From positions 2,464,001 to 2,528,000 of the forward strand of contig CBDBCY010000004.1 in the NCBI GenBank assembly GCA_965203555.1: 64,000 nt of DNA, read 5' to 3'. Shown piece after piece: positions 1 through 4,450 of this stretch. The number at the start of each line of letters is the position of its first letter. The stretch's first letter is position 1. Under the pieces are notes generated by a model that saw nothing but the letters and a program-made list of their open reading frames with translations, made no database searches and was not told the DNA's origin. The position numbers were made by a program, and so were the translations under genes. This stretch comes from Acidimicrobiia bacterium. GTDB lineage: Bacteria > Actinomycetota > Acidimicrobiia > Spongiisociales > ZC4RG35.

Positions 1-224
1 CCGCCGTTCCAAGGTGAGAGCATCGGTGTAGGTTTATAGCTTTCCAGGAAGAATCCCTGTATGGCGTCGCGGGCTAGGTCACTGTTGATGTGGAGAGTGG
101 AGTCCTTCCAAAAAGACAAAAGCTCAGACGAGCATTGCTTATGGAGAATGCTCAGAATCCCTAATCCTCGTAGGTATGAGAGCAAGGGAGTAGAACGACA
201 ACCGGTCAAGGCGATGAGACTCAA
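1..224 (-). CDS. csx17: Type I-G (I-U) Cascade large subunit Csx17/Cas8g, N-terminal part (runs off the window edge)
   Basis: Not in the ORF track. A TTG start overlaps the cas3 stop (TTGA). It translates MSLIALTGCRSTPLLSYLRGLGIL...FFLESYKPTPMLSPWNGG, matching the Csx17 N-terminal pattern GC.P.PL.SYL..LG...Y.PTP..SPWNGG. Confidence 0.88.
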   Translation of the reverse strand, partial: MSLIALTGCRSTPLLSYLRGLGILSILHKQCSSELLSFWKDSTLHINSDLARDAIQGFFLESYKPTPMLSPWNG

Positions 225-2614
225 GACAGTGCCCTCCCCGGGTTAGCACTGGCTCGCCAATCGGCCATCCTCACCAGCATCTCCAGAAATGCCAGACGGA
301 AGGGTCCCAGATCGGACCGATCGCGGAGTGTGAGCATCCGAGCGGTGTAACTGGGGGCAAGACCATCGCCGTTGCCCAAGCCTACGTCTGCGAGACAAAC
401 CTCGCCCCCGCGGGTCTTCCCGCCGGGTATCTCCACGGCTGGCACGTAGTCGCCATCCACCACCCCGAGCGCGATGTCTCGGGCTCTCTTGTTCGGCGGG
501 GGCCGTTCGTCTTCCAATCGACGGACCCCCAACCGGACTCGGCCATGGTGTCCTGCTGCTAAGAAAACCACTAGGTCAGGTTCAGCTACGTCTTCAAGAA
601 GGAATCGTTCGGGGCCAAGCAGCATCAAGGCGGAGACAAGACCGTGCCGGAAGTGTCTCTGGGAGTATCTCAAGGTCCGTTTGTTTCCTCCTTTGGCGAG
701 CACCGCTTCCTCCTCCGGGAGAGGATCAGAGTCTGCCCGTGTCTTCCTGATAGCGTCTTGGAAAACTTGATGTGCCTTGCCGAGGTCGTGATATCTGGCA
801 GCCAACCGTGCCGCCTGAACGGCATTGGTAGGTACGTCAAGGGATCCGAATTCGTCTATTATTTCTACGAAGGATGATTCGGTGTCCGCCAAATGATCCC
901 GGAGTGTCAACCACGGGACTCGGGAGAAGGCGCTTGCCGGATCATCGCCTATAGCCGAATCATGCTGATCGGCCAACACTTTATCGCCGGAGACCGGCGT
1001 AACAGGTTTGGAGGAACGGTCCCAGCCCAGTTCGGATCCATAACCGCCGGTGGCTACGTCAAGGACAACCGTCAAATTAGGTCGTATGTCACGGGCCAAG
1101 ATTTGCGACCAGCGGCGTTCGCCCCGGGCTAGCGGATCTGCTACAAAGGCACGCGCTTTTTTATTGCTGACGAATCTCCGTAACTCTCCTATAGGTACAC
1201 GGCAGATCTCTGTGGCGGAGGGTCCGGTATCAGGCGACGGATGGTTGTCGTCGGTGACCGTGCGCCAGAGCACCATCACGTCACGATCAGCGGTGTCGCG
1301 AATGAACCGCCCGACGTCAATGTCGTTGCCGGTCAGGTCTGGCAAGGTGTCGAACAACTCAACAAGGTCACGTCTGCGGAGAGTGGGAACCGGATCGAGG
1401 TTCGTTTGGACAGTCTTTGCCGACAGCGATGTCGGTGTAACCGTGTCTGGGAGGCTGGTCAGCACTCTCTCGGCAGTGTCGAGTTCATCTTGGTTGTAGG
1501 GATGAGCAGTCTTAGGTCGCATCCACAACATCTGGGCGTCCACTGTTTCGCCTGTTCTGTTGCAGCGTCCCGCTCTTTGCACGAGGGATGACCAAGGCGC
1601 CAGATCGGTGAGGAGGGTTGCAGATGAGATGTCCAGGCCGGCTTCCACGACCTGGGTGGCAATCACAATGCGTCCCGATAATGGGATATCAGCCAGGATC
1701 CGGCTTAGCGCAGCTTGGCGGTCTCCTTGGCGAAATCGTGAATGAATCAGTACCACCTCAGCGTCTGTCTTCATTCTCCTGAGTGCCTTATAAGAGTCCT
1801 GTGCGCGCCTCACATTGTTCGCAACCACCAGTGTCAAAGTGTCGGGTCGGTGATTGTCATAGGCGAGGCGGGCTACATCTATAGGTTTTGGTGCGTGTCC
1901 AACATCTCGGATTTGACGCGGCGCGTCAGATCGTTTGGTCAATGTCTCCCAGGAGCGATCCTCTTCGCCGAGTTCCACAATGCGGCCTACCTCCGGTGCA
2001 TCAACGGTCTTAAGCGCATTGAAGTTCACTGTTGCCGACATCCACATGGTGCTCGTGGGCTGAGCGGTGCCGAAGATCTCGCGAAAGGCTTGAATTTGAC
2101 GCCCGGTCGACACGGCTGCATCCATCAGTTGGATCTCATCGAATACCCACTGGCACCCGGAGTTGAAGGCGCCGAAAGAGATGGGCCAATTCCATCGGTT
2201 GTCTGCGAATCCGCGGTTGAGAGCCCGTGAGAGAAGCATGTCCATCGTGCCTATGAACACGGCATCACGCTCTGGATTGAGTCTCCACTCTTGATCACTC
2301 CAGGCGGCTCCGCCCATCACGCGGTGGACTCCCAGTTCTTCCTGGCCGAGACCAAGGGCTTCCCGCCACTTGACGAACCGATTGAAGGTTTGGTCGACAA
2401 GTGTGCGCATGGGAAGGGCGTAAACCAGCCATCTAGGGGTTGTCCCCCGGGCGGCGTGCCTCCGGAGCCACAGCCAACTAAGCCCCGCGGCTTCCGTTTT
2501 CCCACATCCCGTATCCACTCGCAACACTTCGGGCAATCCTTCGTGGGCGAGACGCGATTGGTAGGGATAGGGATTGTGGCTTGTCGCCTGCCGGAAAAAA
2601 CCGCTGAAATCCAT
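221..2614 (-). CDS. cas3: Cas3 helicase-nuclease with C-terminal HD domain (type I-G architecture)
   Basis: SF2 motifs: PYPYQ, TGCGKT, LPMRTL, DEIQ, MSAT, HSRF, ATQVVEAGLD, QRAGRCNR. C-terminal HD motifs: DHL, HDLGK, RH, GHHG, MADWRAS. A GGAGG SD precedes the ATG. Confidence 0.95.
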   Translation of the reverse strand: MDFSGFFRQATSHNPYPYQSRLAHEGLPEVLRVDTGCGKTEAAGLSWLWLRRHAARGTTPRWLVYALPMRTLVDQTFNRFVKWREALGLGQEELGVHRVMGGAAWSDQEWRLNPERDAVFIGTMDMLLSRALNRGFADNRWNWPISFGAFNSGCQWVFDEIQLMDAAVSTGRQIQAFREIFGTAQPTSTMWMSATVNFNALKTVDAPEVGRIVELGEEDRSWETLTKRSDAPRQIRDVGHAPKPIDVARLAYDNHRPDTLTLVVANNVRRAQDSYKALRRMKTDAEVVLIHSRFRQGDRQAALSRILADIPLSGRIVIATQVVEAGLDISSATLLTDLAPWSSLVQRAGRCNRTGETVDAQMLWMRPKTAHPYNQDELDTAERVLTSLPDTVTPTSLSAKTVQTNLDPVPTLRRRDLVELFDTLPDLTGNDIDVGRFIRDTADRDVMVLWRTVTDDNHPSPDTGPSATEICRVPIGELRRFVSNKKARAFVADPLARGERRWSQILARDIRPNLTVVLDVATGGYGSELGWDRSSKPVTPVSGDKVLADQHDSAIGDDPASAFSRVPWLTLRDHLADTESSFVEIIDEFGSLDVPTNAVQAARLAARYHDLGKAHQVFQDAIRKTRADSDPLPEEEAVLAKGGNKRTLRYSQRHFRHGLVSALMLLGPERFLLEDVAEPDLVVFLAAGHHGRVRLGVRRLEDERPPPNKRARDIALGVVDGDYVPAVEIPGGKTRGGEVCLADVGLGNGDGLAPSYTARMLTLRDRSDLGPFRLAFLEMLVRMADWRASANPGRALS

Positions 2615-2901
2615 TACTTACCTCCACCAGTGGGAGCAAGGCCCACTTTCTTAGGGACGGGTGTCGTTGGATAGCATCTTCGGGTACGCATTTCTGTCGT
2701 TGGCTTAGTGTAGATAGAGGGGTGTGACACCTTGCCATTGGCGTTTTTAGTTGGAGGTCTCTGACTGAAGCAGATAGAGCACATGGGGACATTCCCGCTG
2801 CCCCAAGCGTCAACGGGTTCTCCTTTGGTCTTGTGAGCGCGCCATTCCCAATAGTCATGTTGCTTTCCTCCAGCGATGATCCACGGTGTGATGAGACCCA
2901 T
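2614..2901 (-). CDS. Hypothetical 95-aa ORF translationally coupled to cas3 (uncertain)
   Basis: ATG at 2901 lies just after the TATAAT box. Its TAA overlaps the cas3 ATG (TAATG). It contains CxxC but no recognisable family motif. Confidence 0.35.
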   Translation of the reverse strand: MGLITPWIIAGGKQHDYWEWRAHKTKGEPVDAWGSGNVPMCSICFSQRPPTKNANGKVSHPSIYTKPTTEMRTRRCYPTTPVPKKVGLAPTGGGK

Positions 2902-2910
2902 GTCGCCTTG

Positions 2911-2940
2911 ATTATAGGCACTCTGGTCCCATACAGCCAA
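2911..2940 (-). promoter_or_regulatory. Predicted sigma70 promoter of the uORF-cas3-csx17 operon
   Basis: Minus strand reads TTGGCT (2940-2935), 18 nt, then a perfect TATAAT (2916-2911), oriented toward cas3. Confidence 0.7.
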
Positions 2941-2968
2941 CTATCAGCAACTGTACTCACGGGAAGCC

Positions 2969-3051
2969 AAAAGAGGCAGGACCTGGCGAGGGTCCCGGCA
3001 GGTTGAGCATACATCCAGCTATCAGGCCGCAATGGAGGCCAGGTCCCGCCT
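2969..3051 (-). CRISPR. Single-spacer crRNA-like element (CreA/CreR-like) with a split I-G repeat
   Basis: Minus strand: AGGCGGGACCTGGC-CTCC-ATTGCGGC (3' half of an actinobacterial I-G-like repeat), then the spacer CTGATAGCTGGATGTATG..., then GCCAGGTCCTGCCT-CTTTT. Spacer nt 1-18 match 2947-2930 at 16/18 with an upstream TTG PAM. Confidence 0.7.
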
Positions 3052-3057
3052 TGTCGG

Positions 3058-3086
3058 AGGATACCGCAATTGCCACTTGACAAGTG
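3058..3086 (-). promoter_or_regulatory. Putative promoter and operator for the crRNA-like RNA
   Basis: A -10-like TATCCT at 3063-3058 places +1 near 3051, the first base of the RNA stem. The palindrome CACTTG-A-CAAGTG lies at 3074-3086. Confidence 0.4.
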
Positions 3087-3212
3087 TCAGGACAGGGAGA
3101 AGCGTGTTGCCTCAGCCTGGAGGCCTTTTGGCAGGTCCAACGCGCACCACCCCGACATTCATCTGCGGGGGAGGGGGAGATTGGTGTGGTGTATTGTTCG
3201 GCGCAAAGCATT

Positions 3213-3434
3213 ATGACCAACGACCTGACCGACGAGGGTGTGGAGGCAATCCTGCAACGTGGTTCCCCTGCCTCATGGCCGGACTCCCACAGTGATGAGT
3301 TGAAGATACCCTTCGGTCGCCACCGGGATAACATCTGGATCATCGGGGATATCGTCTCTCCCATGCCTGTCGAGTGGTTCGAAGGGAGTGTTGATGGGGA
3401 CGAGGACTTGTTTAGCCCACTGACGAGTGGTTAA
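3213..3434 (+). CDS. Small antitoxin-like protein (DUF2281/VapB-type C-terminus), no cognate toxin adjacent
   Basis: 73 aa. PFGRHRDNIWIIGDIVSPMPVEWF resembles the G..kG.iwI..D...P.p tail of VapB-type antitoxins, including the one at 46652. Confidence 0.45.
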   Translation: MTNDLTDEGVEAILQRGSPASWPDSHSDELKIPFGRHRDNIWIIGDIVSPMPVEWFEGSVDGDEDLFSPLTSG

Positions 3435-3467
3435 GTCAAGAGGAATGCCGAGGGATTGCACTATGGA

Positions 3468-3558
3468 GCGTTCGGTGGAGTTGCGCTCCATCGCCTGGGT
3501 TGTTTCACCACTGACACTTCCTCCTGATCCCCTCCTGAGTCGGAGATGGCCAGTGCGC
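3468..3558 (-). pseudogene. Degenerate duplicate of the wecB 3' region
   Basis: Translates ALAISDSGGDQEEVSVVKQP/RNSTER versus wecB ALAVSDSGGVQEEVSVVKRP...RNSTER. An 18-bp stretch is identical at 3468-3485 and 5130-5147. Confidence 0.75.
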
Positions 3559-3694
3559 CTCTGGCGAATGGAGCAAGTGGGATGAACGGGACCGCTGATG
3601 GAGGGCGGCAGGGGGTGGCAAAGAGCCAATCTGTCACAGGGCCAAGGTTATGCTGAGCCTATGGTGTCCAGTCGAGATCAGGAGGGGAAACCGT

Positions 3695-4450
3695 ATGACA
3701 ACTGAAGCCGCTGTCTTTTCTGGAAGTGAGGCGACCCAAGGGGCGACGCGCACCTTGTTCCAATCAAAAAAGCGTGAGGTGCGGAATGGCGCTGCTACGA
3801 ACGAGCTTGTTCTGAGCGCCTATGTGGGTGGGAACGAACATGTCTTTCCTCGAGTGATGGGCTTGTACGTAAGTCCCGGAAGTGTGGTGGCTGATGTCAC
3901 CTACGGCAAGGGTGTGTTCTGGAAGAACATACCGGCCGACCGCTATACGCTCCTGGCCACGGACATCCAGGACGGGGTGGACTGCCGGGATCTCCCTTAT
4001 GCGGATGAAGAGATCGACTGTGTGGTTCTCGATCCCCCTTACATGCACTCACCTGGGGGTACTGCCCATCGCTCTCATACGCCCTTTGAGACCTACTACA
4101 GGAATAACGGGTCGGGAGGACAGACTCGTCGGAAATATCACGAAGCCGTTTTGGACCTGTACCTCGACGCTGCGCGGGAAGCGTATCGTGTGTTGCGCGA
4201 GAGGGGCGTTTTCATCGTCAAGTGCCAAGATCAGGTTTGTTCCAACCGGCAGCGCTTCACCCATGTCGAGATTATGGAGGCGTGTGGCGAGATGGGGTTC
4301 GTCGCGGAAGACCTGTTTGTTGTTGTGCGGAACAATCGACCGGGGGTCAGCCGCGTGGTTCGCCAGGTGCATGCCCGCAAGAACCACTCCTATTTCTTGG
4401 TGTTCTGGAAGCGCGGGGCCAAGGGGTCACTGTGGGAAGCTCCCGGCTGA
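3695..4450 (+). CDS. DNA amino-methyltransferase (m6A/m4C)
   Basis: SAM-binding motif variant DVTYGKG and catalytic DPPY. A GGAGGGG SD precedes ATG 3695. Confidence 0.88.
   Translation: MTTEAAVFSGSEATQGATRTLFQSKKREVRNGAATNELVLSAYVGGNEHVFPRVMGLYVSPGSVVADVTYGKGVFWKNIPADRYTLLATDIQDGVDCRDLPYADEEIDCVVLDPPYMHSPGGTAHRSHTPFETYYRNNGSGGQTRRKYHEAVLDLYLDAAREAYRVLRERGVFIVKCQDQVCSNRQRFTHVEIMEACGEMGFVAEDLFVVVRNNRPGVSRVVRQVHARKNHSYFLVFWKRGAKGSLWEAPG

Follow-up and report, generated by a model that had tools for sequence, protein, structure and literature searches.

Several CRISPR-Cas systems keep their own cas genes in check with a guide RNA. Such autoregulation has been demonstrated at the bench for types I-B, I-E, I-F1, V-A and II-A. 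CreR RNAs, which come from degenerate mini-CRISPRs, were shown experimentally to mediate autorepression in I-B, I-E and V-A (10.1101/2023.03.10.532045), and the same work presents, in its Figure S7, creA-like elements that were found by hand for I-D, I-C, I-E, I-F and I-U. Here, we describe a candidate element of this kind upstream of the cas3g gene of a type I-G system, in a 64,000-nucleotide stretch of a 3.4-Mb Acidimicrobiia genome (assembly GCA_965203555.1, contig CBDBCY010000004.1; G000:C4:2464001-2528000), referred to below as the window. Type I-G was formerly named I-U and is, to our knowledge, the least studied of the type I subtypes. The running text of the literature that we searched describes no regulatory guide for I-G; figures and supplements may already list such cases.

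The element combines a repeat-like sequence that keeps the 5' handle with a guide that, starting at its 5' end, shows partial complementarity to a site flanked by a protospacer-adjacent motif (PAM), as is the case for CreR and CreA. We therefore consider it likely to be a degenerate mini-CRISPR encoding a regulatory, CRISPR RNA (crRNA)-like RNA of the CreR/CreA type for type I-G. As in CreR, the repeat-like sequence would give a canonical 5' handle, the element is found in the cas locus, and the PAM-flanked site lies at the -35 of a putative promoter of the effector genes, such that autorepression without cleavage would be expected. Unlike in CreR, the subtype is I-G, the promoter precedes cas3 rather than cas8, one helix arm is what is left of the second repeat, and the element is known here from sequence alone. 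The regulatory mini-arrays and cr-like RNAs of Shmakov et al. (PMC10120712) similarly comprise a standalone repeat and a short-matching spacer at cas promoters, with the correct PAM, and in I-F1 they were observed to have mismatches at positions 6 and 12. The accessible text of that paper details I-E, I-F1, I-D and I-B, with the I-F1 mini-arrays keeping both upstream and downstream stem-loops, whereas here one helix joins the two sides; I-G appears in it as a row of Table 1 (235 loci, 46% with a repeat-like sequence and 4% with a mini-array). CreA, the antitoxin of CreTA (PMC9458426, PMC8501985), shares the order of degenerate repeat (psiR), degenerate spacer (psiS) and optional second repeat, psiR-psiS(-psiR), as well as the partial match, the PAM and the use of Cascade as repressor, but no CreT-like toxin features are seen downstream of the targeted promoter here. 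The tracr-L RNA of type II-A (PMC10120712) likewise occurs naturally and, through a match of just 11 bp, makes the effector repress its own promoter, although it belongs to a class 2 system, with Cas9 and another RNA architecture. What is new at our locus is a probable CreR-like guide, a known kind, in an under-described subtype, while the single-helix architecture is possibly new as such.

The sole CRISPR array of the genome, as found in a whole-genome k-mer scan, lies at C4:2457100-2457510 on the minus strand, which is also the strand of cas3. It is located 6.7 kb past the left edge of the window, the side on which the initial annotation of this DNA, made from the letters alone, had expected the main array, and contains six repeats and five spacers of 35-37 nt. 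The 36-nt repeat, CTCCGAGGGCCGAATTCGGCCCTCCTCCATTGCGGC, has CCTCCATTGCGGC as its 3' end, forms an 8-bp stem with CUCC and then AUUGCGGC behind it, and is palindromic, as used to recognize I-G repeats. This fold agrees with the accessible description in PMC9638904, where I-G Csb2 cleavage was measured 4 nt 3' of the stem base, leaving an 8-nt handle. The earlier interpretation was to be abandoned if the I-G repeat of the genome did not end in CTCCATTGCGGC; it does. A search of the 13-kb locus against Rfam gave no real match, with the two sub-threshold miRNA hits both falling on the array.

All parts of the element lie on the minus strand of the window, which reads CCTCCGACAAGGCGGGACCTGGCCTCC ATTGCGGC CTGATAGCTGGATGTATG and, 78 nt on, TTG CTGATAGTTGGCTGTATG ggaccagagtgcc TATAAT. 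The initial annotation had placed CTCCATTGCGGC with its end at 3026, CTGATAGCTGGATGTATG at 3025-3008 and TTG plus CTGATAGTTGGCTGTATG at 2950-2930, and each of these strings is found there. The degenerate repeat psiR1 (3026-3059) keeps the first 6 nt of the array repeat, CTCCGA (3059-3054), and its last 13 nt, CCTCCATTGCGGC (3038-3026), and differs from it in the middle. Included in the 13-mer are the 4-nt linker CTCC (3034-3037), which separates the helix base described below from the predicted Csb2 cut, and the predicted 8-nt 5' handle ATTGCGGC (3026-3033), which does not differ from that of the array repeat. The 13-mer occurs seven times in the genome when both strands are considered, six times in the array and once at 3038-3026, where it lies on the strand of the array, 412 nt upstream of cas3g, with 13/13 of the 3'-terminal repeat nucleotides kept. 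By contrast with this exact match, the whole-repeat local alignment of psiR1 yields a score of 29.5 against a shuffle mean of 20.3 (s.d. 3.0, maximum 33); as this falls within the shuffle range, the case for a repeat is based on the exact 13-mer and 6-mer and not on overall similarity. The initial annotation had suggested comparing 3026-3051 and 2974-2995 with the repeat of the main array. The 13-mer of psiR1 lies in the first of these. For a second, downstream repeat-like sequence, psiR2, there is only a weak match (GGTCCTGCCTCTTTTG against GGCCCT-CCTCCATTG) with a score of 15.5, under the shuffle mean of 20, and one helix arm is retained. A second handle-like octamer, ATTGCGGT (3063-3070), abuts psiR1, ending 2 nt before its start, and may be the remnant of a further repeat.

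The guide, psiS (2988-3025), is 38 nt long in the assembly and 37 nt long in short-read contigs, and matches its target only in its first 18 nt (3025-3008). The contigs of two runs (X1 and X2) have one base fewer at window position 3003, in the non-pairing part of the guide, and confirm the rest of the DNA; the base difference could stem from an assembly error of the indel type, in which case the guide has 37 nt rather than 38. The contig of a third run (X3) covers 3304-3481 only. Among the runs listed for window 2300-3700, none is recorded as RNA.

The target, or protospacer (2930-2947), is identical to the guide at 16/18 positions, with mismatches at guide positions 8 and 12, and is preceded by the PAM TTG (2948-2950), which is of the TTN type reported for I-G in the accessible text of PMC9638904. 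A repeat search recovered the guide and target as a direct repeat of 18 nt (89% identity, spacing 78). Guide and target share 16/18 bases over positions 1-18 and 2/18 over positions 19-36, and the homology is thus a sharply bounded block that starts at the repeat/guide junction. Throughout the genome, the only match of at least 16/18 to the guide 18-mer, other than itself, is the site 78 nt away, with the next best reaching 15/18. The target covers the -35 hexamer of a sigma-70-like promoter facing cas3 (2911-2940), composed of TTGGCT (2940-2935), an 18-nt spacer and the -10 hexamer TATAAT (2916-2911). In a promoter scan of 2500-3700 on both strands, this was the single consensus site, scoring 10/12 (shuffle mean 0.7); TATAAT itself has 65 occurrences genome-wide, counting both strands. 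The flank upstream of the guide's own locus is GGC, as opposed to TTG at the target. The 16/18 match behind a TTG, its position over the -35 of a TATAAT promoter pointing into cas3 and the lack of a PAM at the spacer's own locus had all been claimed from the letters, and all were borne out. The observation is real and well beyond chance.

To see how general this arrangement is, we turned to other I-G loci. An alignment of 28 Cas3g proteins served to collect 267 relatives in species-representative genomes, of which the best 80 of 267 were kept, giving 81 I-G loci with the window (the others carry L numbers below). A repeat could be called in 54/80 of these loci and in none of the other 26, and the repeats of most arrays, read on the cas3 strand, end in CATTG followed by CGGC, AAGC or similar. 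In the 1.5 kb that precede cas3, either strand was searched for 12-mers that resemble the handle and are not part of arrays, and for each such site we took the best 18-nt match of the bases that follow it within 700 nt on either side. This selection was made by identities only, with neither PAM nor periodicity being used, and sites with at least three such motifs within 260 nt on either side were excluded as arrays, which removed L057 (16/18, TTA). The scan yielded 27 standalone handle-like sites in the 81 loci, and the best local match was flanked by TTN in 15 of them, namely in the window, L023, L027, L034, L041, L045, L046, L048, L050, L052, L059, L064, L075, L081 and L085. For random 18-mers from the same regions, TTN was found at the best match in 203/6400 cases (3.2%), with mismatches evenly spread; against this rate, the 15/27 corresponds to a binomial P of 4e-16.

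The matches per guide position in these 15 loci fall into segments. Positions 1-5 are matched in 14, 15, 14, 14 and 15 loci, positions 7-11 in 15, 14, 13, 14 and 14, and positions 13-17 in 13, 12, 12, 10 and 9, while position 6 is matched in 3, position 12 in 3, position 18 in 4, and each of positions 19-36 in 0-7. Guide positions 6, 12 and 18 thus behave as unconstrained, as would be predicted from the I-G Cascade structure, in which every sixth base is seen unpaired according to the accessible text of PMC9638904. The initial annotation had invoked this signature and the TTN PAM for the window, and both recur in 14 other I-G loci. As the guides are mutually unrelated, each locus represents a separate guide/target pair. 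The window element fits the pairing rule except at position 8, which is mismatched in none of the other 14. The layout of element and target varies. In L034, L041, L045, L052 and L085, the element is located 87-215 nt before cas3, with the target just upstream on the opposite strand, so that the guide would be cut out of the cas3 leader, and repressor guide and cas mRNA would come from one promoter. In the window, L046 and L075, the element precedes the target on the same strand. At several loci, the target overlaps or adjoins TTGACA/TAnnnT-like (-35/-10-like) hexamers that face cas3.

A further shared feature is a helix that encloses the handle and the guide. An inverted-repeat search of the window revealed a 14-nt 5' arm, AGGCGGGACCTGGC (3038-3051), 93% complementary to a 3' arm, GCCAGGTCCTGCCT (2974-2987), with the arms 50 nt apart, and the pairing of 3051-3038 with 2987-2974 is the core of the minimum-energy fold. 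As an alternative, the 3' side can fold locally into a 7-bp hairpin (2997-2977) with CCTCTTTTGG behind it, an arrangement resembling a terminator, and the two predicted folds may alternate. The z-score of the 121-nt fold is only -1.68, and the helix is therefore argued from the inverted-repeat arms and from duplex energies across loci. In 130-nt folds of the 15 elements, about half show pairing between the bases immediately 5' of CUCC|AUUGCGGC and a segment that directly follows the guide. We then computed RNAduplex energies for the 16 nt that precede the linker against the region from +18 to +100, with 210 cross-locus pairings as control. The values for the window (-30.8 kcal/mol), L027 (-31.3), L034 (-26.6), L041 (-24.2), L046 (-24.4), L050 (-33.5) and L081 (-32.1) are each under all 210 controls (mean -14.7, s.d. 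3.3, minimum -24.0), and each of the seven helices extends up to the base directly preceding the 4-nt linker. It should be noted that a base-anchored helix table optimizes the register for a locus's own pairs only, which makes its cross control lenient; the RNAduplex control is the fair one. An AU-rich 10-bp helix in L045 is not significant by energy. Altogether, a helix of 10-14 bp with the handle and guide in its loop, and with its base exactly 4 nt ahead of the handle, is seen in the window and about eight other loci. Helix sequences are unrelated in nine loci, differing at every position. In six loci, the 3' arm starts 37-40 nt after the first base of the guide, i.e. one spacer length on, at the place expected for the 5' arm of a following repeat.

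A scan by structure only, for two complementary 11-bp arms separated by 4 nt, ATTG, a further 4 nt and then 30-47 nt, returned, outside arrays, the window, L027, L039, L041, L050 and L081, all at most 700 nt upstream of cas3, in addition to two doubtful matches. L039 was picked up in this way alone, with a 12/18 site next to TTT, and is not one of the 15. The scan also picks up arrays, as expected of palindromic repeats, and eleven control 4-mers gave 0-9 matches each. L048, L059 and L075 present ordinary local repeat hairpins instead of the long helix. We tentatively propose, as an idea that falls somewhat short of an even chance, that many I-G regulatory guides are inside-out, single-helix mini-CRISPRs, in which a first repeat has decayed and its 3' arm pairs one spacer length (37-40 nt) downstream. 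In this view, the long helix would stand in for the repeat hairpin, one Csb2 cut would make the 8-nt handle, and Csb2 would stay on the two-stranded 3' hairpin, such that a single repeat-equivalent would yield a crRNA of two pieces. The passages on hairpins and stems that we searched in the literature on CreR, CreA and mini-arrays (as distinct from figures and supplements) describe no helix between repeats; they report distinct stem-loops upstream and downstream, or that no hairpin is conserved.

If the element functions as we propose, the minus strand would be transcribed across 3059-2974, and Csb2 would cut 4 nt after the helix base, placing the canonical 8-nt handle AUUGCGGC on the guide. 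I-G Cascade loaded with this guide would recognize the TTG PAM at 2950-2948 and pair with 2947-2930 over three 5-nt segments (guide positions 1-5, 7-11 and 13-17), thereby covering the -35 of the promoter facing cas3g. With pairing stopping at position 18, Cas3 would not be licensed and the complex would repress. Since cas3g heads the operon that encodes Cascade, this would amount to autorepression, with relief expected once other crRNAs titrate Cascade away or it is blocked. Transcription, processing, binding without cleavage, repression and the identity of the controlled transcript are all steps that we infer. A role in sensing crRNA load or anti-CRISPR proteins would follow by analogy with the CreR work in other subtypes (10.1101/2023.03.10.532045, in its accessible text).

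The operon itself is well defined. The cas3g gene (221-2614, minus strand) is the first gene of cas3g-cas8g-csb1-csb2-cas4g/cas1g-cas2-array, and its 797-aa product, from open reading frame (ORF) 2614-221, has the helicase domain N-terminally and the HD domain C-terminally. The remainder lies left of the window, with cas2, cas4g/cas1g, csb2, csb1/cas7g and cas8g/csx17 sitting between the array and the window edge. Among the proteins that define type I-G, Csb2 is a fusion of Cas5 and Cas6, and Cas4g/Cas1g is likewise a fusion. All six NCBIfam I-G models score over their cut-offs (TIGR02621 689 bits, TIGR04113 488, TIGR02570 88, TIGR02165 189, NF049935 769 and TIGR01573 43). The I-G system of the initial annotation is accordingly present as a complete operon. 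As the genes behind cas3g overlap or abut, all in one direction, the promoter that serves cas3g probably serves Cascade too.

Several observations weigh against a regulatory guide and need to be considered. Seed position 8 is mismatched in the window element, while it is matched in the other 14/15 loci, and the window copy may thus have lost strength or be in partial decay. A consensus scan detected no guide-RNA promoter upstream of 3060, and by eye there are only candidate hexamers spaced 14 or 21 nt apart. As psiR1 forms no stable hairpin of its own, its processing would need the long-range helix or another nuclease. Between the target and cas3 lies a conserved block, GTGTCACAC...(T)TACACT (2700-2727, minus strand), which includes the small palindrome GTGT-C-ACAC and is common to L007-L010 upstream of cas3, in relatives without the guide element; it is found about 120 nt upstream of cas3 in L007, L009 and L010, and also at L004 5350-5385. 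Its role may be that of a proximal promoter for cas3 or, alternatively, that of a protein operator. Should it be the main cas3 promoter, Cascade at 2947-2930 would not block it, and the guide would control only an extra, distal promoter. Finally, six accessible loci with Cas3 at 64-67% identity (L006-L010 and L082) contain no such element; as these are the nearest accessible relatives, recurrence is seen for the design rather than for the window's particular element. Most of these points would also fit a non-functional relic, i.e. a self-derived spacer once acquired from the adjacent DNA by a small or terminal array that then decayed; the degenerate middle of psiR1, its missing hairpin, the seed mismatch, the failure to predict a guide-RNA promoter and the closest accessible relatives without the element all speak in its favor. 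Had a full self match of 35-37 nt decayed at random, however, its mismatches would be scattered, whereas 16 matches fall in positions 1-18 and 2 in positions 19-36. Moreover, the handle and linker are intact (13/13), a 14-bp helix was kept or built around the guide, and the same truncated three-segment design is found in 14 other loci, so that we regard a relic as unlikely.

The targeted promoter could also serve something other than cas. Its predicted start is near 2904, and downstream of it a GGAGGA Shine-Dalgarno sequence and an ATG (together 2856-2870, minus strand; ATG at 2858-2856) are arranged as GGAGGA-N7-ATG, with the ATG about 46 nt after the predicted start and an open frame to 2478, out of frame with cas3. 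In a CreTA-like addiction module, the guide would repress the TATAAT promoter of a toxic small RNA or peptide starting at this ATG, and loss of Cascade would free the toxin. The ideal Shine-Dalgarno spacing, the block nearer cas3 as a possible real cas3 promoter and the guide design shared with CreA RNAs (PMC9458426, PMC8501985, in their accessible text) agree with such a module. The features of CreT described in the accessible text of PMC8501985 (tandem identical rare codons after the start and a stable stem-loop) are absent, though, the codons after the ATG being ACT ATT GGG AAT. Furthermore, the frame, which runs 126 codons into cas3, displays no coding signal and no Pfam hit, with a GC content at third codon positions of 0.49 versus 0.61 for cas3, and in several other I-G loci, where the element is 87-215 nt before cas3, there is no room for a toxin gene. 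We therefore judge an addiction module improbable, and provisionally read the region as a leader and not as a gene. Finally, direct repeats near promoters are often operators, and the 18-nt repeat could represent two sites for a transcription factor, with the repeat-like 13-mer being coincidental; a same-genus genome (G008) does have a palindrome, GTGACCATGGTCAC, upstream of cas3 instead. Yet, the 18-nt homology starts at the very base after the handle, the TTN PAM is present at the downstream copy and absent from the upstream one, the 13-mer is otherwise confined to the array, and the every-sixth-position pattern across loci is a property of Cascade that is not expected of an operator. An operator pair thus seems very hard to credit. 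The interpretation put forward in the initial annotation, a guide for repression by I-G Cascade, is the best supported one.

Taken together, the window locus and the 14 others are sequence evidence that I-G Cascade may act as its own repressor. They suggest a simple rule for I-G regulatory guides, comprising a TTN PAM, three paired 5-nt segments and nothing past position 18, which could be useful in designing I-G guides for CRISPR interference whose binding does not bring in Cas3. If true, the single-helix layout would offer new insight into substrate recognition by Csb2 and what it needs for cleavage.

Regarding relatives of this locus, the Cas3 is found in 3/61 related genomes, the window's own included. 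In G008 (Cas3 64% identical), a 74-repeat array has the same handle, and no ectopic handle or guide element is found upstream of cas3. L082, with a flank of only 311 nt, contains one handle-like CTCCATTGCGGT. Closer Cas3 relatives, at 85%, 72% and 70% (P0002-P0004), are known as ENA proteins. Metagenome Cas3 matches from 8 loci were left unused, seven being full-length at 39-43% identity and one a 46-residue fragment at 59%.

Some neighboring features were also noted. In G008, at L004 5100-5170 upstream of cas3, the perfect palindrome mentioned above and further GTGACC copies occupy the place of the guide element, which suggests protein-based control of cas3 in that genome. The last ~75 nt before cas3 in L007, L009 and L010 hold a conserved GGAGGA and a GTG/ATG mini-ORF of about 16-24 codons, ending in an ATGA over the cas3 start, an overlap that may reflect translational coupling. 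Just past the array, at L086 140-1165 on the plus strand (G000:C4:2455140-2456165), lies an ORF with weak nucleotidyltransferase matches, to MntA antitoxin and HalB models, both far under their cut-offs. On the other side, divergent from cas3, a 74-aa ORF at window 3210-3434 (plus strand) has gene-like codon-position GC and no Pfam hit, and is followed at 3650-4450 (plus strand) by a DNA methylase (PF01555, E 4.9e-08).

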